Positions 5,104 to 60,910 of a stretch of 64,000 bases of DNA are shown here, piece after piece. The number at the start of each line of letters is the position of its first letter. Position 1 is the first letter of the stretch. The notes beneath the pieces were generated by a model. The model was not told the origin of the DNA, made no database searches, and saw only the letters and a program-made list of their open reading frames with translations. Source of the DNA: Naegleria gruberi (lineage: Eukaryota); assembly GCA_000004985.1 (NCBI GenBank), contig GG738874.1; one strand, 5' to 3'. Both the position numbers and the translations under genes were made by a program.

Positions 5104-6777
5104 ATGATTAATGGAAATATTACTCTCCGTCGTCATCAGAGACATTTATTGGAGGAGGGCGTTAATTTGGTCCCTGATCCTAACTTGATGACTGTTCCAC
5201 CTGGAGGAGCTGGAGGTGAAAGTTTTAGTGAGGCAATGCCAACAATTTTATTAACCCCACCAAAGAGAGAGCCAATGCCTTTGAGAACACCTAAATCGGT
5301 ATCACCTGCATTGTCTAATGCATCAACTTCATCATTGTTTTTATCGGTGAATGCAACACCTCAGGGAAATAATTTTGCCTTTCCATCACCAAAAGGATTT
5401 AATAATTTGGATACCCCTAATAATTTGTTTTTAAGAAAACCTTCATCAGCCATGCAATCAAAGTCTGTTTTTGAGGGTCTTCCAGGATTTGTAAGTATTC
5501 CTTATTAAATTATTAGTATTTATTTATTTGGAATACAACAGAAAAAATGTAATCAAGAACAGTTTGAACATCATGCTCCAAAGGATGAAAAACAACAAAA
5601 GAAGAATCCAACTAAATATTCTGTAAGTTTGTTGTTGGATCTTTGAGACTAATTTTTATGGAATTAGAAAGATATTGAGGAGAGGTCAATTAATGCAGCC
5701 AAATCGTATAGATTTTTTGAGGATTCAATTTTGAGAAAACCTTCTTTAACTATTGGGCAATACAAGAGAAATAGCGTCCTGTATGAAGCTGATTTGAAGG
5801 ATTACAAAAGATTGAATATGGTTGCTGCCATGTCTGCATTGGAAGAAACTCCAATTGAAAAATATAATCGCTTAAAACAGGAAATTGAGGATTTTATTGG
5901 AGAAATGGGAAGAATGTCAGTGGAAAATCCAAAAGTAAAACTTGTTGGAGAAAATGTAGCAGTGTACTCTGAAATATTGGAGCAATCAAAAGAATTGAGG
6001 CAAAAGTTGGAAGTTGCAAAGGATACCAATACTTGCTGCTTTTTAGAATTGAATAACAAGGAGGATGAGTCAACAAATCAAATTCTTAGCCAAATTCAAT
6101 CCGAACTGGATAAGGCATTGGAAAATCAGTTAAATACTCTTGTTTCTCCTCAACAACAAACTCCAAAACTTCAAAAACCAAAGAAGGAAACTATTTCTCA
6201 GGACTCTTCAAGAGTGTTAAGATTGGAAAGAAGATTGGCTCACTTGGAGAAATTAGTTGGAACTGAGGATGAAAGGAGAAATGTCCTGCTTAATGATAAA
6301 AACTCCTCTGCCACTACGAAAAAGTATGCAAGTCTTGAAACAGCCATCAACATTTTGGAAAAGAAGGTCAACACAATTGATCCTTTCTTTATGCAATCGT
6401 TAGAGTCTAGAATTAAGAATATTTTGAAGGATTTGGAAAATATCTCCACTCTTGAAGTTGTAAACTCTTCATCAATAAGCTTTAATGGAACAAAAATTGA
6501 AAATTTATATCAAAGGGTCAGAAAGTGGGATGAGTTAACAAAACAAGTTCCTATGATTGTTTCAAGACTGCAAACATTGAAAATTGTTCATGATGAAGCA
6601 ATATATTTTGCAGGAACTGTCTCAAAATTGAAACAACAACAAGAGGAACTTTCTAGATTGTTGGATGGGAATGAAAAATTACTCACTAACATTTCCACTA
6701 ATTTTGATGATAATTTAGTGACTATTAATAAGAATATTAAATTAATCCAAACCAGGATTGAGAATATCAAAAAGTAA
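5104..6777 (+). CDS. DCTN2: Dynactin subunit 2 (dynamitin), three exons: join(5104..5490,5542..5622,5668..6777)
   Basis: The C-terminal region (ENLYQRVRKWDE, LKQQQEELSRLLDGNEKLLTNISTNFDDNL) matches the dynamitin coiled-coil region. The track ORF at 5731 starts at TTG. The upstream ORF (4954..5508) is in the same frame once two short introns are removed. Intron 1 (5491-5541) and intron 2 (5623-5667) both have GTAAGT donors and AG acceptors. All exon lengths are multiples of 3. The ATG at 5104 is preceded by an A-run. Confidence 0.65.
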
Positions 6778-24886: not shown

Positions 24887-24958
24887 TCCCGTGTAGTCCA
24901 ATGGCTAGGATACCTGGCTTTCACCCAGGAGGTCCGGGTTCAATTCCCGGCATGGGAG
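24887..24958 (+). tRNA. tRNA-Glu (anticodon UUC)
   Basis: A cloverleaf could be drawn by hand. The acceptor is TCCCGTG/CATGGGA with one G-U pair. The D-arm is GTCC...GGAT. The anticodon stem CCTGG/CCAGG carries the loop CTTTCAC (TTC). The T-arm is CCGGG-TTCAATT-CCCGG. Total length is 72 nt. Confidence 0.9.
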
Positions 24959-29794: not shown

Positions 29795-30035
29795 GCGGTT
29801 TTTTCAAGCATGATATCTTTGTTTTCTGTAGACAATAACATTGATAAAAACCGTTGACAGCAAGGTTTGAAAATTGGGACAATTGTGTTTCATGAGGTAT
29901 CGTAAATATTATTTGGAATGGTTGCACAAATTCACTCTTCTAAAGTTCCTTTGTATGGATTTCGGGATGTAATGTATTTCTTGCTGCAAACATTTTCCAA
30001 GTAGAAATAAACCATTTCTGATCCTCTCAATAACC
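29795..30035. repeat. Direct repeat, left copy, flanking the kinase-fragment locus
   Basis: Shares the blocks ttttcaagcat..gatatctttgttttctgtagaca.aacattg and ttccagtagaaat.aacca.ttctgatc.tct.aataac with 31287..31447, in the same orientation. The left copy carries an extra segment of about 85 nt. Confidence 0.7.
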
Positions 30036-30037
30036 AC

Positions 30038-30717
30038 ATGCTTCATATGCTACAAAGGGATAGTCTCGGCAATGAGAAGGAAGCATTTGCCTTGCTCACA
30101 TCACCTAAGAGCGAAGGAGGTCTAGGAATTGAAAGGGAACGATTAAATAGATTTGAGGGAAATTGGCAACTTATCCTATTCAACATTATTGAAAATTTAG
30201 AAATTGGTGGGGTAAGACTTAGCAAAGATTTTGATGGGAACAAAAGAAGAAAATGAGAGAGAGGTTAGTCCACCTACAGGAATTGTGAAAATCAAGTTAT
30301 GCTCGCTTGGCCTTGAGGGTGAAGATAACATGAATCGTTTCTCTGATGGAATTTATCATTGTTTGATAATGCCACATTACCCAAGAAGTTTGGCTCTTTT
30401 GGAAAAACTATTAACTCCAGAAATAATACTGAACGAGGGGAAGAACATTTATGGAGCCTCTTAAATTTATCCACAAAAAAGGAATGGTTCATATGGATGT
30501 AAAACCTGCTAATATATTTGTTAGTACTGAAGATGACTGGTTTTTAGGAGATTTTGGTTCTTGTGTCAAGATTGGAGAAGCAATGGTTGGTTATGATTTT
30601 TTCATGTTGGCTGTGAGCAAGATCAAAATCAGATTTTGCAAGATGAATTGCTGTTTGAAATTGTTTATTCAAAAGTTGTTAAACAAAGCCAATTTGGAAA
30701 AAATAGAAGAATTATAA
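30038..30717 (+). pseudogene. Fragmented Wee1/Myt1-like protein kinase remnant preceded by a conserved small ORF
   Basis: Three short ORFs lie in different frames. ORF 30038..30256 is a paralogue of ORF 56976..57173 (EGG[LI]GIE..LN...E......L..I[IV].NLEIG) and is followed by GTAAGA. ORF 30451..30717 encodes the catalytic loop VHMDVKPANIFV...FLGDFG, which is diagnostic of Wee1/Myt1-type kinases. Stops and frame changes break it, and no complete kinase domain can be assembled. Confidence 0.5.
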
Positions 30718-31286: not shown

Positions 31287-31447
31287 TGTTATCTTTTCAA
31301 GCATTTTGATATCTTTGTTTTCTGTAGACACAAACATTGCAATATCATTTGGAATGTCTTTGGATTTCAGAACAGATTTATATTCCTTGATGGTAACATG
31401 TATTTCCAGTAGAAATGAACCAGTTCTGATCTCCTCTTAACAATCTT
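31287..31447. repeat. Direct repeat, right copy
   Basis: See the feature at 29795..30035. It ends about 340 bp upstream of the capping-protein gene. Confidence 0.7.
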
Positions 31448-35577: not shown

Positions 35578-35650
35578 GCTGGCGTAGCTCAGTCGGTAGA
35601 GCGTTGGTCTAATAAGCCATTGGTCGCCGGTTCGATCCCGTCCGTCAGCA
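35578..35650 (+). tRNA. tRNA-Ile (anticodon AAU)
   Basis: The acceptor GCTGGCG/CGTCAGC pairs with one G-U. The D-arm is the classic GCTCAGTCGGTAGAGC. The anticodon loop CTAATAA gives AAT. The T-loop is TTCGATC. One mismatch sits at the 27-43 position of the anticodon stem and one C-T mismatch in the T-stem, so the gene could be slightly degenerate. Confidence 0.7.
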
Positions 35651-41672: not shown

Positions 41673-44600
41673 ATGCAAAAGCAAGAGCCTTCGCCAACGA
41701 CGGCTCCAACAAACAACCACACCGGAAAGACTTATTCCAGCTCGATCGATGATTATCATGTTTTGGAATTAATTGGTGAAGGATCATTTGGAAAAGTCTT
41801 TAAGGGAAGAAGAAAATATACAAGTCAAATTGTCGCTATGAAATTTATCCCAAAGAAGGGAAAAAACGAGAAGGAGTTATACAACCTCAGACAAGAAATT
41901 AACATTTTAAAGAAGCTTAACCATGAAAATATAATTTTATTATTGGATTCGTTTGAAACTAAAGAGGAATTTTGCGTAGTGATGGAATTTGCTCAAGGAG
42001 AGTTATTTGAAATTCTTGAGGATGATGAACGTCTTCCGGAAGATGTTGTTGGCAAGATTGCTAAACAACTCGTAAGAGCTTTACACTATCTTCACTCTAA
42101 CAGAATTATCCACAGAGGTATGTAATAATATAATTGAAGATTATATCTTATCCCATCATCTCTGTACAACAATAGATATGAAACCACAAAATATTTTGAT
42201 AGGATCAGATGGTGCCATTAAATTGTGTGATTTTGGTTTTGCCAGAGTCATGTCTTGCAATACCATGGTTCTTACTTCTATCAAGGGTACACCTTTGTAT
42301 ATGGCTCCAGAATTGGTCCAAGAACAACCATACAACCACACAGCCGATCTGTGGTCACTTGGTGTTATTCTGTACGAGTTGGTTGTTGGTAAACCTCCAT
42401 TCTTTACTAACAACTTCTTTTCTCTTATTCAATTCATTGTGAAGGATCCTGTAAAATATCCACCTTATATCAGTCCTCCAATGAAGAGTTTCCTTAGAGG
42501 ATTATTGAATAAGGCACCAAAACAAAGATTGGACTGGCCAAAATTGCTTGAACATCCATTCGTTAGGGAAACAAAAGAAGAAAAGGAACAAAGAGAAAAA
42601 CTGTTATTGGATAATATTGGTAGAAAGAGACTTGAAATGTTCGAGAAAATTGTTGCCCTTAATCAAAAGCAAGATTCAAATACAAAGAAACCAAAGCAAC
42701 CATCCAAGACTCCTAGCCAAACAAGAGTGAAGAAAAAGGTTGAACCAAAGAGAGATAGTAAGTTTTTAAGATTTTTTTGGAATACTAATACTATTGATCA
42801 ACAGTACCTTTGTCTGAGATTGAAACAGCAATTGCAAAGGATGAAAATGGACCAAAGTCAGTAATGAAGAATGTGGAATATTTGGATAAATTGGCTAATC
42901 TTATTAAGGTTACTCAAACAGCTTACAAAACAAAATCAACAAAGACTGTCCAAACATCTCTTAAAATATTATCAAAAGCATTGGAAAAGTGTGAGGAAGA
43001 GGATTCTGATAACTTGGTGGATGCTGGAATTGTCAGTAGCTTATTGGTATTTTTGAAGGAATTTGCAGGAGCTAAATTTGACACCAAACCTATAGTACTC
43101 GATGCGTTAGTATCCTTACATTTTGCTCTTCCTTACGGAATTGAAGTTCTTAATTCCACTATAACTGACTACTTTTCAGTCATACCAAGTCTGATCGATT
43201 ACAGATATGACACCACACTTGCCGTTCAAATATATACAATGAAATGCTTGAAGGAATTGGGTCTGAAAGTAAGCTCGTCCCCACTTCAAACACAACCAGC
43301 TTTTGATTCTCTAAAAGATCCACTCATTTATGAATCATTGGCCTCATGTTTAGATTACAAAGTTATCAAGACTGAGAAGAAGTTTGTTACACATCTTTCC
43401 ACCACAAGTGCAAAGGCATTGGCTGAGTTAATGCACCCAACTGATGGAGATGTTTTCCAATTCCCTTGTGTCTTCCAATCAGAAAGTTCCTCATCTACAG
43501 AAAATATTGACTGCAACCAAGATATCAACATAAGAACAGCTATTGCTAAGGCTCTAGCCAAGCAAAATATAGTGAGCAGTCTGAGTGATCTTGTAAATTC
43601 ACCTGATTACAACAGTAGAATTGGAATTTTGAAGGTACTATTCCAGTCTTGTAGATTTTTGCCAGAGTTTGCTAGACAAGTAGCTCTCGATTCTCCTCTT
43701 GTTTCTTCAATAATGTCCTTAGTCAAGGATTCAACAGATATGAAGGTAATTTACGAAACTGAGCTCTCTTGTCTCTTGCTGGCAACTATCTTCAAAGAAA
43801 CACCAAAAATAATTCCTCAATTTGGTCGAGATATTGACACAGTCATTAATACCAGTGTATCTATCATCAATACTGCTCTAGATGAAAGATATAAATGCTT
43901 TGCAATTCTCCTTTTGGCCAGACTTTCTTCCAATCCAGACTCTAAGAAGAGAGTTATTAGCGAATTAATGACGCCTGTGGGAATGTCGAAATTGAACGAT
44001 GTTCTGACTAAGGATGTAAGTTAATATTTTTTTTATATTTTTCTTATTTTATTTCAGTTCTCAGTTTATCAATGGCACGAAATTAAAAGAGTGGAAGGTT
44101 CTGGATTTGGTTTCCCTGATATTGGTTTACTGGATGGTGTTGTGTACTTGTTTAATCAAGTGTCTGACATTTGGGCTTCATCATTCAATAATTTGCTTTC
44201 CAAGACTGGTGTTTGGAGATCTCTGACTGAAAGATTGAAATCAAGCGATATTGAAATGTCTCCAGATGCTGCCTTGGCAAGTATTAAATTAATGTATGAT
44301 ATTGCCTCGGCTAATCCTGACACCATTCCAACCCTTGTGGGTGATATGAGTATTGTTAGAACTGTTATTCAATGTTTGAAAAAGAATATTGTGACTGCAT
44401 TTTCACACTGGCCTGCTTCAAGAAGTGGTGGTTCATCCTTTGTAAACATCTTTATCAACTCCTCAGTGAGCCTTCTTCACTTGTTATATAATCAAGCCAC
44501 TCTTCAAGAAAAGGAAAATGAAAAATTGTTAGCTGAACTAATTAAGGTAACACACAAGGAAGAATTAGTCAAGTATTGTATTGGAAATTTGGAATTTACT

Positions 44601-45428
44601 ACAATGGAAAACTTTGGCTCATCCCTTAACTTCCTAGCTAGTATGGTTATTACATCACCTTTTTTCACCAAACAATTCATCAAGTTTGGTGGTCTTCAAC
44701 CAGAGTTTTTACAACAAATACTTAACACTTCGAATCCATCAACAGTTCTTATGGATGGACTTTCCATTCTCAGTCAAATTGCTAGAACCAGCAAGGATTA
44801 TTACAAGCAAATTCATCAAGCCAATATCTACACAAACATCAAAGATCTTCTTAAGCATAAGGAGAATGATGTCAGAGCGAAGGTTTGCAATTTGATAGGT
44901 AATATGTGCCGTCACTCTGCGTTCTTCTATGAAGCTTTGAATCAATATGGACTTATTCCAGATCTGATTCAAAGATGCAGAGATAATGATGCAAACACAA
45001 GAAAGTTTGCCTGCTTTGCTATTGGTAATGCTTGTTTCCACAATAATAACTTGTACAAAACCCTCACTCCTTCCATTCCTCCACTAATTGATTTACTGTC
45101 TGAGAATTCAGATGAAAAAACAAGAGCAAACGCTGCTGGTGCTCTGGGTAATCTGGTAAGAAATTCAAACGAGCTTGTAAAAGACTTGTTGAAGAATGGA
45201 GCCATAGAAGCCCTTGTTAAAACATTAAGCGATGATAATTCGAGTGCCAAGAAGATTGCTCTATTTTCTCTTGGCAACTTTTGTCAATATGAAGAGTGTT
45301 GTATTGTATTGAAACAGCTTAACTTTGAAAAGACCATTACAGAAATCATGGCTAAGAGCCAAGAAGATACTGGTGTTCAAAAATATTGTGCCAGAATCCA
45401 AACTAATCTCTCCAAAATAACTATTTAA
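41673..45428 (+). CDS. STK36: Fused/STK36-family Ser/Thr kinase with a C-terminal ARM/HEAT region; join(41673..42117,42176..42757,42805..44015,44058..45428)
   Basis: The kinase domain aligns almost residue for residue with Fused/STK36. The matching stretch runs [22 protein letters not shown]...[10 protein letters not shown]...[10 protein letters not shown]...[14 protein letters not shown]. The C-terminal ARM-like repeats ([34 protein letters not shown]) match the STK36 tail. Three introns of 58, 47 and 42 nt have GTATGT or GTAAGT donors and AG acceptors, and phases agree. The total is 3609 nt (1202 aa). Confidence 0.85.
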
Positions 45429-48261: not shown

Positions 48262-48333
48262 GGCCGTATAGCTCAGTGGTAGAGCTTCTCTCTCGTAAGG
48301 AGAAGGTCGTGGGTTCAAACCCCATTGCGGCCA
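48262..48333 (+). tRNA. tRNA-Thr (anticodon CGU)
   Basis: The acceptor GGCCGTA/TGCGGCC pairs. The D-arm is GCTCAGTGGTAGAGC. The anticodon loop CTCGTAA gives CGT. The T-arm is GTGGG-TTCAAAC-CCCAT. Total length is 72 nt. Confidence 0.85.
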
Positions 48334-48341
48334 AATTTGAA

Positions 48342-48512
48342 TTTTAATCTTTTGCTATTCCTCGCTTTGTTTTTTGATATTTTTACTTTATTTTTTCAAA
48401 TTCTCACATTTACAAGTTTATCTACATGTGGTTCAATTTTCCAATCTTTAATTCAAGAAATGATTGAGAATGAGCTGTTCTAAAGTGGGTACATGATTTT
48501 TCGCTTGAATTT
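48342..48512. repeat. Direct repeat copy 1 (tRNA-proximal) of the element flanking the HNH gene
   Basis: The blocks ttttaatcttttgctatt and aattttccaatctttaattcaagaaatgattgagaa..agctgttctaa.....gtacatgatttttcgcttgaattt recur at 50383..50495 in the same orientation. Copy 1 carries a 75-nt internal segment that copy 2 lacks. Confidence 0.8.
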
Positions 48513-48923: not shown

Positions 48924-49847
48924 TTATTTTTCCATAGACAATACTCTTTGAAAACTCAACAAGTTCACCATTCTCTCCTTCATTCCTAAATCAATAACTT
49001 CCGATCTTGCATGCTTTTCCATGTGCTCAAAATAATGGCACCCATCGCAAAGCAATTCAAATTCCTTCAATTTTTCTACTTGTTCCTCTTCGGTCATTCC
49101 AAGAATTAACTTGTACTCATTAACATTATTGGCTATTTCCCTCTCTTCCTCATCGATATCTTCTGTTGCTTGAGCTCTCTTCTTCACACCATCCCTATTC
49201 TTGTGATGCACATGGAATATCTTTCCCAATTCTGAATTAGATTCAAAAGACAAGCCACATTCCTGACATTTTCCTCCCATCAGAGTGATCATCTTTTCAT
49301 GACAATATTGCCAATTAGAACCACCTTCAACATTCCTTGCATGTTCCAAACCATGACAAGGTCTGCACAATACTTCCAACTTTTCATTCTTCTTGAACCA
49401 ATCAGCTCCAAGCTTTCTGAATTCGGGAATGAATTTTGTTGTACTCTTAAATGTCTTTGTAAAGTCATCATCTTTATACATGACATGATGAAGAGTGAAT
49501 GCATTAACCTCATGTAAATGTTCCATTTCAATACGACATCTATTGCACTTGATTGACAAATCATCCCTCTCCAACACTTCTCTTAAAAAAGTATGAATGG
49601 CAGCTTGCTTTTTTCTGGAAATGTAAACAGCACATCTGGGACATGTTTCATCATCCTTCAATTTAACAGAACCAAAACAAAAATGGCAGTTGACACCTTC
49701 AGCTCTAATCTTGTTAATCCTGTCACTCATTTGAAGTATAGTCTTTTTGGAACATTCCTTGCACTTGTCCCTATTTGTCTTCGAAACAAGTTGGCCGCAT
49801 CCACACAACCCTTGGTCTCTACGAGTGCATTTTCGTGCTCTTTCCAA
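48924..49847 (-). CDS. Zinc-ribbon protein with two tandem HNH (His-Me finger) nuclease motifs
   Basis: An N-terminal CxC...CxxC ribbon (GLCGCGQLVSKTNRDKCKEC) is present. Two modules follow with the CxxC...HH...N...LCxxCH architecture. The first reads CNRC...TLHHVMYKD...KNEKLEVLCRPCHGLEH. The second reads CQEC...FHVHHKNRD...LLCDGCHYFEH. The ATG at 49847 opens a 307-aa ORF that could be expressed on its own. Confidence 0.6.
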   Translation of the reverse strand: MERARKCTRRDQGLCGCGQLVSKTNRDKCKECSKKTILQMSDRINKIRAEGVNCHFCFGSVKLKDDETCPRCAVYISRKKQAAIHTFLREVLERDDLSIKCNRCRIEMEHLHEVNAFTLHHVMYKDDDFTKTFKSTTKFIPEFRKLGADWFKKNEKLEVLCRPCHGLEHARNVEGGSNWQYCHEKMITLMGGKCQECGLSFESNSELGKIFHVHHKNRDGVKKRAQATEDIDEEEREIANNVNEYKLILGMTEEEQVEKLKEFELLCDGCHYFEHMEKHARSEVIDLGMKERMVNLLSFQRVLSMEK

Positions 49848-50372
49848 CTCGTTAGCTCTCTCACGTTGCTCATTGGATTGAGCAATGTGATTACTTAACT
49901 TCTTAACAAAATCTCTAAAGCCATTAGAGTATTGAAAAGTTCCATCATGAATAGCATTTTTGAATTTCTACCAAGTTTCTATTCTCTTTTCATTATTCTT
50001 GAATTTATCTGGGAAATGATCATACAATTCTTGGACATATGCAAGATAAGCCCTTGCCAATTTCGAACCATATTCATGAGAAATATTGGATGAAGGTCTT
50101 GGAGGACACTTGTTGAGTTTAACATTATCCAATATGGGAAGGAATTCTTCCAAGATTGAATTGTTGGGTTGATTTCTCTTCTTGGTTGGTGGAGTTGATT
50201 CAATGGTAGAATCCCTTCTCTTCTTACTATCATTACTTGATGAAGGCTTGTTGGAATTATTTGAAGATTGACCAGAGTTGCTAATAATAATACATGATGA
50301 TTGACTAGTTGATGATGATGAAGCCTTTCTGGTAGACTTTGGTTGAATTGATAACGTGGTTGATGATAACAC
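49848..50372 (-). pseudogene. In-frame 5' extension of the HNH gene, interrupted by a TAG and lacking any ATG
   Basis: The 134-codon ORF 49968..50372 (Ser/Asn-rich, ...KFKNNEKRIETW) ends in TAG at 49968-49970. It continues in the same frame through KFKNAIHDGTFQYSNGFRDFVKKLSNHIAQSNEQRERANELERARK into the HNH ORF, since 49967 minus 49847 equals 120. The extension begins right after a TAA and its first sense codon is GTG. It contains no Met codon. Confidence 0.55.
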
Positions 50373-50382
50373 TTGATTTCCT

Positions 50383-50495
50383 TTTTAATCTTTTGCTATT
50401 TTCTCCACCATTTCGCTAATTTTCCAATCTTTAATTCAAGAAATGATTGAGAACTAGCTGTTCTAATCTTGGTACATGATTTTTCGCTTGAATTT
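50383..50495. repeat. Direct repeat copy 2, immediately 5' of the HNH gene extension
   Basis: See the feature at 48342..48512. Confidence 0.8.
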
Positions 50496-50873: not shown

Positions 50874-51165
50874 TCATAGTTCAGTAAAGATGAACAGCAC
50901 ATGTGTCGGCTGTACTGTCAAGGCTTGGGATGAGAGTATACTAATATCTGGAATCATCTTCTTCATCTTGTCACTCATTGGGATTGTATTCTTTTTGGAA
51001 CATTCTTTGCACTTGTCCCTATTTGTCTTCGAAACAGGTTGGCCGCATCCACACAACCCTTGTTCTCTACGAGTGCATTTTCTTGCTCTTTCCAATTCAT
51101 TAGCCCTCTCACGTTGCTCATTGGATTGAGCAATGTGATTACTCAAGTTCTTCACAAATTGATTT
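50874..51165 (-). pseudogene. Truncated second copy of the HNH gene 5' region
   Basis: About 190 nt (50960..51152) are roughly 90% identical to 49721..49910. They encode ...KNLSNHIAQSNEQRERANELERARKCTRREQGLCGCGQPVSKTNRDKCKECSKK, then diverge and terminate. Confidence 0.75.
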
Positions 51166-56321: not shown

Positions 56322-56975
56322 ATAAATTGTAAACTTGTGGTCAACCTTTTGTTAAAGAATATGTTCTGAATTTTATCTTAATCTAGATTGAATATTTGAA
56401 ATAACGCTGTGAGGGTGGGTGAGTATTTCCAGTGTTGTGTTAAAAAAGTGCTCAAAAAGGAAGTTTAGGTTGAGACCAAAAAAGAGTTGTATTGTGACAC
56501 AATGAGATCGTGAAGCTTTGAGAGAAGGCTCTCAATTCCATTCACTGGTATTTAAGAAAAAAAGAACAAGCACACTCGATGGCTGTCATGTTTGAGTGTC
56601 CAATTAATTGTTGGAGTTTTTATTGGGTTCATCATGTTATCTTGTCCATGATAAAAACTCTTGGATTTGGACACCTAGACATGACAACCATCTAAATAAA
56701 TTAGAATTATAAAAAGGAACTATTATTTTACAGTCTTTTGAAAGTCCAAGGATTCGGAATCGTTGTTGTGATAGAGTTGTACCTCCAGAATTGAGTAATT
56801 AAAGATGAGAATGTACACGTCTTGCTCTCACTCAACAAACCTTAATTTTTGAGTCTGTTCTGCTCGAATTTAAGATTAGTTTTGCGTCCGCAGGGCAGGT
56901 GTTTGAGGTAAAAAAAAATCTTTTATTACGACAATAACGAATCTATTCAGATTCTCATAGTTGAGGTAAAAAAAA

Positions 56976-57173
56976 ATGAATAGAGACGATTACTATGATC
57001 TCAGTAAAGAGGAACTTTTATCCTTACTTTCATCTCCCTTCAAAGAAGGAGGGATTGGGATTGAACATGAACAGCTAAACCAACTTTTTGAGTTTTGTGG
57101 TGGCTCTTTTTTAAATGTCATTGTGAAGAATTTAGAAATTGGGGATTGCCTGGTATATTTTCGTAAAAGATGA
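56976..57173 (+). other. Conserved small ORF upstream of a kinase gene (paralogue of 30038..30256)
   Basis: The 65-codon ORF MNRDDYYDLSKEELLSLLSSPFKEGGIGIEHEQLNQLFEFCGGSFLNVIVKNLEIGD lies 170 bp upstream of the receptor-kinase ATG. At the peptide level it resembles LLTSPKSEGGLGIERERLNRFEGNWQLILFNIIENLEIGG at 30038..30256, which also lies upstream of kinase fragments. DNA identity is only about 70%. Confidence 0.4.
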
Positions 57174-57341
57174 TTTGATTCCAAAGTATTGGATCCAATA
57201 CAACAATCACATTTTCAACAGATGAGAAATTTCCGTAGGAGTTTGATATTCATATTTATTGTAAAGGTTCTATTAGAAATGGATTGTTATCTGTTACATT
57301 CGCAAAATTTCCATATTGATAAGAAAGGACTAGTTAAAAAA

Positions 57342-60300
57342 ATGAAAGGTTCCATTGTCTGTATTGTTTGTGTTGTGTTGTTGGTGTTGACGATTCAATA
57401 TGAGAACAGCTTTGCATCTCTGACATCAAAACAACAACAATTAACACTCTTTCTAGATTCGAATAGTAATTTTATAAATTCTAATTGCTTGGAATCAACA
57501 TTTCCTTGCTCTAATTTTACACAAATTATTCAAGCCACTAGGAATTTATTAAACGAAACTAACAAGCTCGATAATTTGGAAGTTTTGGTTAGAATTCGGG
57601 GGGAAATTACTACTTGTGATCATGTCATTAATTTTTCACAATTTACAACAAATTTCAAGTTGAGTTTAGTCTCATGGGATGTGAACAACCAATTCTCTAT
57701 ACCACCACGTCGGTGTGTTTTCATTGATGAAGATTCTAGTTCTATTAATGAACTCTATTTGGAAAATGGACACATAGAGATGGATTTAACAAATCGAGAA
57801 TTTGATATAGTTTCGATTGTAAACTCTACAGGTGAAATGTATTTCAATACGAAAGAATTTTCATGTGATAGTTCAACGATTAACATAATCCTCAAAAATA
57901 GTGAAAACATTCGAATTAAGAATTCGAATATCGATATTAATTGTAAAGCAGGTACTCAATTTAATGATTTTAATGTGGAAAATTCAATTCTGATTATGAG
58001 TGACTCAGAAATTTCTAATTTTAACACATTCTCTATTAGAAATTCTATTTGGAAGTTGGAAAAAGTTAGTATCATCTATACTATCCGATTGAATCTTGGA
58101 GCATACGTTTCAATAACTGATTGTGAAATTATTGGAAGCAATGCCATGTTTGAAAATATTGACGTATTGGAAATGACAAGAATCAAGTCAAGAGAACTCG
58201 ATCATTTAACAGATGAGGATAGTAGTGTCACTATCTTTACACTATTCAATATTCGCAATATTAAGGTTTCAACCAGTAATTTCACAGAAAACAAATTTGC
58301 AGGCAGCGTTTTTGATATACAAGGATGTTATCAAGTGGAATTCACTAATTGTAATTTTTACAATAATTTACAAAAAGAATTCATTAGGGTGAGAGCAGTT
58401 CAAGATACAGATCTTTCAATTAGTGATTCAAAGTTTTTTGATAATAGGGTTGCAAATGCTCTAATTAATCAGGAACCATATCAGTTATTATTATTTTACA
58501 TCACTAATTGTGAATTTATGAGAAATTATGGTGGTTCAACCGGTTCAGTATTGAATCTCTATAGAAGTGATGTATATATTGAAACGTCAAGCTTTTCACA
58601 TAATATGGCAATTAAGGGAGGAGCCATCTATGGATTGAACACTAAAACTCTAGAACTTAAAAACTCAAATTTTACAAATAATGAAGCAGATTATGGAGGT
58701 GCTATTTTTTTAGTTTACTCTCAACTCTACAAAGGAAATGCACTACATCTGATTAACAGTTTATGTGATGGAAATGTTGCAAATATTGCAGGTGGTTGTT
58801 TGTTCAGCAATGATAACTATTCAATGAAGTTAATTAAAGGAGTGAATAGAGCAGGATTTTATGGTAATACTTTGGCCTCTGGTTTGGTCGGATTGATTGT
58901 AGAATTGGAAGATAAGAATGGAAAGTATCAAACTGTTACGAATCAAACAATTAATGTGTTTCCTGGTGAATACATGAACTTTAGAATCATTTTATATGAC
59001 ATGTATTACCAGAAAACTTCAAAATTGAGAGATGGTGACTTGTTGATATCATTAGAAGAATCTCAATCATTCGTTATGCAAAGTCAAAATTTTGCAAATG
59101 GAAACGAAAGCATTCTATTGAGTAATACTCAAATTTTACTCAAGAATTCCAAACATTTTTTTAATTCCTCAACATTTTTAAGACTCAACATTCTCGGTAT
59201 GGAAAGAATAATTCATTTGAACATTGTAGAATGTCCATTAGGATATTCAATGTCAAGAAATTCTGGAACTTTTAAATGTGAAATAATTCCACTTGAAATT
59301 ATAATTCCATCAGCCATACTTGGAACAATATCCTTGATTATTATTTCGATTAGTTTGATTATTGGATCAGTTTACATTATTAGAAAATTGAAGAAATTGA
59401 GGAAACAAGAAAGAGCAGAAATGGAAATTCAGAAAAAGTTTACAGATAATAATTTCATATTTAACAATTCAAATTCTGATGTGTTATCTGAATTACATGT
59501 TCCATTGATAGAATCTTCAAAAAGCAATCAATCATCTTACCAATACACAATACCAATTTCGGATATTAACATAATTTCAAAAATAGGAGAAGGAACAAAT
59601 GGAATAGTTTATAAAGGAAAATGGCAAAGGACTGATGTAGCCATAAAACAACTGAAGACTTCAGAAGAGGATAGTGAGGAATTTGAAAGAGAAGCCATTT
59701 TAATGAGCTCATTGAGACATCCTTCAATTGTCAGTTGTTTTGGAGTCTCTCTGACACTCAATAGCAAGTATATGGTGGTAAGTTTTCTGATTTTTCGATT
59801 AAAGTTTAAAACGAATTTATAATAGGTTGAATATTTGGAAAATGGAAGTTTAGATAAAGCTCTTTATAATTCTAGAATTGGAAGAGAAAAATTACTATTC
59901 GAAACCAAGTTGAATATTCTATTCGATGTTGCCAAAGGAATGGTCTATCTTCACTCCATCAATCCTAACAAGATTATTCACAGGTGAGTTGATTGGAAAC
60001 AATTTTTATGATTAATTTCCATTTAGAGATTTAAAACCAGGAAATATTTTGCTTACCAAAAATATGAATGCAAAGGTTGGAGATTTTGGATTGAGTAAAA
60101 TAGTCTCGAATAACACTGCAACCATGACTACAAACGTTGGAACTTTGTTGTATATTGTAAGTTTAGTTTCATTATTTGAAATTTTCTAATAAGAAAAAGG
60201 CCCCTGTAAGTTAATACTATTTTGAAATTTTAAATTTAGGAATGATATTTTATGATAGGAATTATTATCAAGTTATCACAAAGGTCAAACAACAAAATTA

Positions 60301-60910
60301 GATGTTTATTCGTTTGGGGTAATCATGTGGGAAATTTTATTCGAAATAATACCATTTTCAAACGAACTTTCAGATGTGAACACTCCATTTGCAATGTGTC
60401 CACTCTTTCTTTTGATAATTATCATTGGAATACTAAATAGAATCATGACAAGACAGAGAAATGTCAAAATTGATGAAATGATTGGAGTAAATATTGAATC
60501 GGGACAGATGGTTGTGTTTGGGGTGATGGTTGGCTCGTAATTAAGGGCTCCTAATTGAAATAATAGAGGATGACATGGTGAAGTAATGTTCAACTGAGAT
60601 GTGTTGAGAAGTGACATTTTTTTTTGAATCATTTTAGTTATCTCTGTAAAATTAATGGGATCTATCCTTAAGAGATATCTCAATTGACCTCAATGTAATA
60701 GTATAAATGGATTGCCCAAATGAATTCATACAAGAAAATTTTACCAATAAGGAAATTCAAAGATTTGGAACTGAACTAATTTCAAATTGTTTGAGGGAGT
60801 ATATAGAATTGATGAAATTATGTTGGCACACCAATCCTAATGAAAGACCTGAATTTATACAAATTTCTGCAAGTTTAGAATCCATAATTGATTTGTTAAC
60901 AGGGAATTAA
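57342..60910 (+). CDS. Receptor-type Ser/Thr (TKL-like) protein kinase with a Pmp-like parallel beta-helix ectodomain. Partial model: join(57342..59777,59826..59983,60027..60156,60200..60205,60259..60375?,60752?..60910)
   Basis: The signal peptide is MKGSIVCIVCVVLLVLTIQ. The ectodomain is about 640 aa with FxxN and GGAI motifs (FTNNEADYGGAIF, FSHNMAIKGGAIYG). The TM helix is AILGTISLIIISISLIIGSVYII. The kinase core spans exons 1-3 and the microexon. Those exons read GEGTNGIVYKGKW...VAIKQLK / VEYLENGSL...IIHR / DLKPGNILL...VGDFGLSK...GTLLYI / AP / ELLSS...DVYSFGVIMWEI. The final exon carries the subdomain XI motif LMKLCWHTNPNERPEF. Introns have GTAAGT or GTGAGT donors. The last intron is only a tentative placement: donor GTGAAC, acceptor aataag, about 375 nt. 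Confidence 0.6.

Follow-up and report, generated by a model that had tools for sequence, protein, structure and literature searches.

A short conserved ORF family 5' of kinase genes in Naegleria: candidate upstream ORFs

The DNA analysed here (the window) is a stretch of 64,000 nucleotides from contig GG738874.1 of Naegleria gruberi NEG-M. The window is 34% G+C, TAA ends 28 of its 34 long ORFs, and its genes are closely packed, some of them with short introns that begin with GTAAGT or GTGAGT. Same-strand intergenic gaps of 190–330 nt are normal. Three tRNA genes are found in intergenic gaps (24887–24958, 35578–35650 and 48262–48333 (+); Rfam RF00005, 60–70 bits). There are two pairs of direct repeats, one of 203 nt (49708–49910 and 50956–51158, 91% identical) and one of 78 nt (48435–48512 and 50418–50495, 94% identical), with the copies of each pair ca. 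1.2–2 kb apart. Two long ORFs in the same frame, 42798–44024 and 44025–45428 (+), are parted by a single TAA, and a match to a kinase catalytic loop is found at 42172–42426; they could belong to a single intron-containing gene or to two genes that abut.

Two short ORFs in the window, p1 and p2, encode related peptides, and each lies 5' of kinase sequence on the same strand. The features at the two loci are as follows.

56903–56919 and 56961–56977 (+): perfect 17-nt direct repeat, TTGAGGTAAAAAAAAAT, copies 58 nt apart
56976..57173 (+): p1, an intact ORF of 65 codons followed by TGA
57003..57143 (+): core of p1 that is homologous to p2
57174..57341 (+): spacer between the p1 stop and the receptor-kinase ATG, 168 nt, open in the p1 frame
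57342..60910 (+): receptor-type kinase gene with a signal-peptide-like start, MKGSIVCIVCVVLLVLT
29811..30028 (+): three blocks of direct repeats in collinear order, just 5' of p2
30038..30256 (+): p2, an intact ORF of 72 codons followed by TGA
30071..30208 (+): homologous core of p2
30219..30618 (+): remnant of an atypical protein kinase, a pseudogene
56993–57184 and 30043–30243 (−): antisense ORFs over p1 and p2, 63 and 66 aa, mutual score 73
p1-derived peptide for proteomics matching: EGGIGIEHEQLNQLFEFCGGSFLNVIVK

The start codon of p1 lies in an A-rich context (aaaaaaaaATG), and the copy of the 17-nt repeat at 56961–56977 supplies the A and the T of this ATG. The annotated-type genes on either side of p1 are 1020 nt apart; 655 nt of this gap lie 5' of p1 and 168 nt lie 3' of it. 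The gene that follows encodes a receptor kinase with a large extracellular part, one transmembrane segment and a TKL-like kinase domain, which is split by at least three short GTAAGT/GTGAGT introns; an ATG in the same frame is found upstream of the gene start, at 57222. A first-pass annotation of the window had placed p1 170 bp 5' of this signal-peptide receptor kinase, and the measured distance to the ATG at 57342, 168 nt, agrees with it. AATAAA is the hexamer most enriched within 160 nt after stop codons (14 of 28 genes vs. a background of 12%), which suggests that it is a canonical-type poly(A) signal in N. gruberi. The 168-nt spacer contains no AATAAA.

The relationship between the p1 and p2 peptides is far beyond chance. 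In tblastn searches of the 64-kb window, p1 matches p2 with E = 1.4e-7, and there is no further match to either. Their local BLOSUM62 score is 95, against 24.0±4.5 for shuffled sequences (none of 5000 shuffles reached 95), and the second-best score among 559 six-frame segments of the window is 40. These values bear out the first-pass annotation, which had listed both ORFs as encoding related peptides. Its estimate of ca. 70% nucleotide identity was too high – the measured identity is 59% when the sequences are aligned by codon (81/138) and 62% in a free DNA alignment (81/130). At the amino acid level 23 of 47 positions are identical (residues 10–56 of p1 and 12–57 of p2). The flanks of p1 and p2, 300 nt on each side, are similar only at the level of shuffled sequence, so the homology is confined to the ORF. 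Neither ORF contains a disabling lesion.

No annotated protein contains p1 or p2, according to a word-indexed search of 5.8 billion proteins. The proteins searched include the N. gruberi proteome – of ten long ORFs of the window that were looked up by exact sequence, seven are annotated proteins (EFC43296 to EFC43310). A profile search of 1.84 billion representative sequences returned one spurious repeat protein (P0001) and no true homologue. There was no match to p1, p2 or the third copy described below (p3) in Pfam at E up to 10, no match to the peptide among PDB sequences, no homologue of it in JGI metagenome contigs or viral contigs, and no Rfam family at the p1 and p2 loci. As far as the databases show, the peptide family is restricted to Naegleria. 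AlphaFold, run on the alignment of the two sequences, predicts a helix (residues 11–19), a loop and a long helix (residues 31–52) with a pLDDT of 63; the loop is the conserved SP.KEGG.GIE. A Foldseek search of the PDB with this model gave nothing informative (best E = 3.8). A SAM domain was considered for p and rejected, there being no Pfam, PDB-sequence or meaningful Foldseek match.

The sequence that follows p2 is the remnant of a kinase of the type of FDP41_007337 from Naegleria fowleri, represented among the database proteins by P0002. It was delimited by tblastn with P0002, P0003 and P0004, by tblastx with contigs L001 and L018 and by translation in three frames. A kinase catalytic loop and a DFG are encoded in the ORFs 3' of p2 (Pfam Pkinase). 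The interval 30219..30458 reads LAKILMGTKEENEREVSPPTGIVKIKL and matches residues 135–218 of P0002, in frame +1 relative to p2. The p-type similarity in p2 stops at NLEIGG (30211), the equivalent of residues 1–134 of P0002 is missing between 30211 and 30219 (a deletion of ca. 134 N-terminal codons), and the tail of the p2 ORF crosses this junction into kinase-derived sequence in another frame. Further on, a one-base insertion near 30456–30460 shifts the frame between GKNIYGA and LKFIH, 19 codons are deleted after the DFG near 30588, and similarity to the kinase is gone beyond ca. 30624. The kinase after p2 is a pseudogene. The p2 copy, still attached to it, is therefore a remnant, and it is uninformative on present regulation.

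The end of p2 had been described in the first-pass annotation as a GTAAGA splice donor. This GTAAGA, at 30212, sits at the deletion junction, 7 nt before LAKILM, which is homologous to kinase coding sequence in the other frame. The 58-nt interval 30212..30269 was rejected as an intron because it contains LAKILM. The repeat blocks of 29811–30028 return at 31307–31436, 3' of the kinase remnant, so the unit of p2 and pseudokinase is bracketed by a duplicated segment. The bracketing blocks are 33, 16 and 34 nt long and 82–94% identical, and they may be the mark of a tandem segmental duplication. The minus strands of 29811–30028 and 31307–31436 both contain related short peptide stretches.

When a conceptual protein of p2 plus the kinase was used as the query, three rare relatives were found (P0002, P0003 and P0004), and no N. 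gruberi protein was among the database matches. A profile built from these three added P0005 alone, and the four rare clusters P0002–P0005 are the true relatives of the p2-linked kinase. Compared with solved kinases, the family profile scores GCN2, DMPK, MRCK, MAP3K2, NEK1, Myt1 and PAK alike, with matches limited to the catalytic-loop/DFG region. The fragments 3' of p2 had been called Wee1/Myt1-like; they are indeed kinase fragments, but with seven kinases scoring alike the Wee1/Myt1 specificity does not stand. Searches for viral relatives of the p peptide or of the kinase family found none, and a viral origin of the kinase is unsupported. The receptor kinase after p1 is unrelated to the P0002 family except as a kinase: tblastn with P0002–P0004 gave weak generic kinase matches only (59959–60153), and there is no P0002-type sequence 3' of p1. 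The contig that encodes P0003 (L003, 27% GC) has a small ORF just upstream of its kinase (147–332, +), which encodes a Cys-rich peptide of 61 aa unrelated to p.

P0002 comes from a metagenome contig, L001, whose proteins share clusters of at least 90% identity with N. fowleri proteins; the cluster of P0002 contains FDP41_007337 and FDP41_001242. A tblastn search of L001 with p1 gave one match (E = 1e-4), just 5' of the kinase gene. This locus was compared in L018, L019 (N. fowleri reference genome), L020 (a third source) and L001. Over 501 nt the sequences of L018, L019 and L020 are the same, and L001 differs from them at 3 positions (99.4% identical). The third copy is placed as follows.

L018 5648..5866: p3, an open frame of 72 codons with the conserved core, MMIMREACVSKSPPSTYKILPISTNNRLLRFFSRAGSTTEMLHPFSGFCSGSFLNMVVNYIEMEEYRMLMSK

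The score of p3 against p1 is 61 (z = 9.4, 0 of 5000 shuffles), while its score against p2 alone is non-significant. p3 ends in TAATAA, and the first ATG of the kinase ORF (MFMDNMSTV...) follows 5 nt later. The kinase ORF is in the −1 frame relative to p3 and is open back to 5821; the NCBI model of FDP41_007337 starts 135 nt beyond its first ATG. The ATG that aligns with that of p1, in the same A-run context, is at L018 5638; since its frame is not that of the core, the p3 core would have to start at the ATGs at 5648–5657, 10–19 nt downstream. This out-of-frame ATG is a caveat that weakens the claim that p3 is intact. A frameshift in the middle of p3 was considered and rejected: the core is one open 72-codon frame, and the p1-like ATG alone is out of frame.

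FDP41_007337 and the fragments after p2 are members of one rare kinase family, and the identity of FDP41_007337 to the remnant is 59–70%. Since p2 and p3 both lie 5' of the same kinase family, the link between p and kinase is ancestral, and the kinase association put forward in the first-pass annotation now extends to a third copy, directly 5' of a kinase in a second species. The N. fowleri locus, FDP41_007336–007337 (with its duplicate FDP41_001243–001242), has the order histidine kinase, p3 ORF, atypical kinase, and p3 is the sole other p copy that was found. This locus differs from the p2 locus in that its kinase ORF, though of full length, has no catalytic HxD, and p3 differs in having 12 extra codons and an out-of-frame p1-like ATG. 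Its neighbours show synteny with neither locus in the window. No p-like ORF was found adjoining 14 distant metagenome relatives of the kinase, P0003 or P0005.

Several other features of the N. fowleri locus were observed. FDP41_007337 (L018 6001–6897, also in L019 and L001) lacks the eight residues KKGMVHMD, which include the catalytic HxD and are still there in the N. gruberi pseudogene, P0003 and P0005; judged from its sequence, FDP41_007337 may be a pseudokinase or a decaying gene. The block of histidine kinase, p3, kinase and UbiA occurs on two N. fowleri contigs, identical over the 501 nt compared, and retroelement ORFs (RVT_1, RNase_H) lie 5' of it at L018 1–2069 and L019 1–1520.

The p peptide has evolved under purifying selection. 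Between p1 and p2, the method of Nei and Gojobori (NG86) gives pN = 0.34 and pS = 0.69, the latter near saturation, for an omega of ca. 0.23, and synonymous sites have changed more often than nonsynonymous sites (Fisher p = 0.0012). In the 28-codon core shared by p1 and p3, pS is 0.76 (saturated) and pN is 0.36. The first-pass annotation had argued for selection on the peptide and had named dN/dS between the copies as a check; both comparisons support it. Of the six reading frames, the sense frame alone is free of stops in p1, p2 and p3. The antisense −1 frame is uninterrupted across p1 and p2 and closed by stops across p3; the antisense ORFs were therefore rejected, and they are probably a by-product of shared wobble positions. 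Codon usage is equivocal as evidence for coding: p2 scores 0.255 bit/codon, inside the range of coding sequence (0.31±0.12), and p1 scores 0.107 bit/codon, inside the intergenic range (0.08±0.12).

In a three-way alignment p1 has the shortest branch (0.22, vs. 0.34 for p2 and 0.47 for p3), and in the core only the lengths are 0.12, 0.36 and 0.47, respectively. With p3 as the outgroup, p1 has 2 unique changes and p2 has 9 (chi-square p = 0.035, binomial p = 0.065). The contrast is based on small numbers and fits relaxed constraint on the pseudogene-borne p2 with continued, or very recent, constraint on p1. All three ORFs end 9–15 codons beyond the NLEIG/NYIEM motif. A common stop position in three ORFs makes one ancestral stop likelier than three independent truncations, and this shared boundary is the chief reason for regarding p as a self-contained ORF in front of the kinase ORF.

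The explanation favoured here, at somewhat less than even probability, is that p is a self-contained upstream ORF that is co-transcribed with the kinase ORF. Under this explanation p1 and p2 would belong to a Naegleria-restricted family of self-contained ORFs of ca. 65–72 codons, whose ancestral position would be directly 5' of an atypical kinase ORF of the FDP41_007337 type, on the same strand. The p ORF would be transcribed within the leader of the kinase mRNA and translated from its A-rich ATG. Ribosomes would terminate 168 nt before the receptor-kinase ATG in N. gruberi (48 nt before the in-frame ATG) and 5 nt before the first kinase-ORF ATG in N. fowleri; they would then have to re-initiate, or to scan past p, and p would in this way limit translation of the kinase. 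Because the peptide is conserved, the p product, nascent or released, would matter. Co-transcription, translation and a regulatory effect of p are inferred.

Two further observations count for a co-transcribed upstream ORF: the lack of an AATAAA between p1 and the receptor kinase, and the absence of p1 from the annotated proteins although the proteome was searched. The spacing itself is neutral – with gaps of 190–330 nt normal in the window, a distance of 168 nt cannot separate an upstream ORF from a separate gene. A search of the literature on upstream ORFs in Naegleria found none.

Conserved-peptide upstream ORFs (CPuORFs) are known from plants, for example, and the arginine attenuator peptides of fungi are of this kind. 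Like p, CPuORFs are short ORFs on the same strand as a main ORF and just 5' of it, the peptide itself is conserved, they go unannotated, and they precede regulatory genes, kinases included. p starts with an ATG 5' of the main ORF, on the same strand, and ends before the main ORF starts, and its amino acid sequence is under purifying selection. As for the main ORFs across species, p2 and p3 precede the same kinase family, and p1 precedes an unrelated receptor kinase. This last point, that p1 is followed by a main ORF without homology to the main ORFs of p2 and p3, weighs against an upstream ORF and sets p apart from CPuORFs. So do its length, 65–72 codons being long for an upstream ORF, and its conservation, which runs through the middle of the peptide and is not focused on the last codons at the C-terminus. 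Two of the three main ORFs are degenerate, those linked to p2 and p3, and the ancestral unit of p and kinase may simply be dying. The off-frame p1-like ATG in N. fowleri and the intergenic-looking codon usage of p1 also weigh against this explanation.

A possible alternative, given less weight than an upstream ORF, is that p1 is a non-functional and fairly recent 5' leftover of a duplicated unit of p plus kinase, with the receptor kinase a coincidental neighbour. The low dN/dS would then record past selection and not present function; since dS between the copies is saturated, omega averages a long history, which counts for a relic. The sister p2 unit is visibly decaying, having lost segments and acquired a frameshift, and in N. 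fowleri the catalytic loop of the kinase is gone. The codon usage of p1 falls among the intergenic values, there is no P0002-type sequence 3' of it, and no intact member of the kinase family is annotated in N. gruberi. The arrangement resembles an unprocessed pseudogene or partial duplicate in the deletions and the frameshift of copy 2 with its kinase and in the duplicated segment that flanks them, but it differs in that the p ORFs are free of disabling lesions and p1 has changed the least of the copies. Also against a relic, 65 codons have been kept open in sequence of 34% GC (the chance of this, estimated from base composition, is <1%), p1 is the slowest-evolving of the three copies, and its homology with p2 stops exactly at the ORF borders. 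A coincidental kinase neighbour is made less likely by the scarcity of kinases, 2 of ca. 35 genes in the window. Genome-wide, kinases are a few percent of N. gruberi genes.

It is less likely again that p is a micro-protein gene in its own right, with a separate promoter and 3' end, that encodes a small helical protein of ca. 65 aa, possibly derived from the neighbouring kinase family or interacting with it. In favour of this, the ORF is intact and under purifying selection, p1 lies in an unusually long gap (1020 nt) with near-normal spacing downstream (168 nt), and a helix, loop and long helix (11–19 and 31–52) are predicted at modest confidence (pLDDT 63). However, in N. fowleri only 5 nt separate the p3 stop from the kinase-ORF ATG (135 nt to the annotated start), which leaves little room for separate transcription signals, no AATAAA follows p1, the codon usage is weak, and there is no match to a fold or family. 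MicroProteins are small proteins that stem from a single module of a larger regulator. p is like them in being small, helical (by prediction), stand-alone and genetically tied to a multi-domain signalling family, and unlike them in having no detectable similarity to any domain of the kinase family; the p product is also putative.

It is rather improbable that p is a portable cassette, copied from the upstream ORF or N-terminal piece of the kinase family to an unrelated receptor kinase and kept there by selection. As such it would act as a translational gate or as a micro-protein on kinase signalling. If true, this would be a case of regulatory-ORF shuffling between genes in a free-living excavate.

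A role of p as a first coding exon, or as a detached N-terminal domain, spliced or formerly fused in frame to the kinase, is very unlikely and is not supported by the comparison with N. fowleri. P0005, a distant and apparently intact relative, does have ca. 75 extra N-terminal residues where p lies, but profile–profile comparison (hhalign) of p with P0005 and with the kinase family gave no match (E = 0.5–0.6); the extra segment of P0005 has weak similarity to SAM_PNT (E = 0.002 when the segment is searched by itself). The kinase-frame sequence YRDGGISYANEQIISMF, just 5' of the N. fowleri kinase ATG, weakly resembles residues 22–38 of p1 (19 of 3000 shuffles), but apart from this one marginal match Smith–Waterman scores of p against the kinase sequences are at the level of shuffles. 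Three registers in which p might be a diverged kinase N-lobe or N-terminal piece were drawn up by eye and rejected, none being statistically supported. There is a GT 3' of the conserved core not only in p1 (GTATAT) and p2 (GTAAGA) but also in one N. fowleri strain, where L001 reads GGTATAT; at this position the N. fowleri reference reads GGAATAT, with no GT. A 69-nt GT..AG interval, 57153..57221, would link p1 in frame to the ATG at 57222; against this, the spacer is open in the p1 frame and so contains many in-frame GT..AG pairs, none of them with the GTAAGT/GTGAGT donor of the neighbouring genes. The N. fowleri locus offers no canonical intron of suitable length that would connect p3 in frame with the kinase and still preserve the N-terminal segment that is conserved with P0005. 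The frame offset from p to kinase is −1 in N. fowleri and +1 in copy 2, and a fusion of p1 ahead of a signal peptide would make little topological sense. The shared leader exon that the first-pass annotation had suggested, spliced onto kinase genes, thus lacks support, the N. fowleri locus having neither a workable in-frame intron nor a GT in the reference.

In order of probability, then, an upstream ORF is followed by a recent relic, an independent micro-protein gene and, last, a leader exon or N-terminal domain. Should p1 be a relic, ordinary gene decay accounts for the locus, and what is gained is that a kinase pseudogene and a small, rare kinase family are now correctly described. Should p1 be translated, a model heterolobosean would have a lineage-specific coding element that annotation has missed and that has a relative in the pathogen N. 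fowleri. A conserved-peptide ORF before kinase genes would be rare outside plants, fungi and animals, and this one would show that such an element can outlive the gene that it first served.
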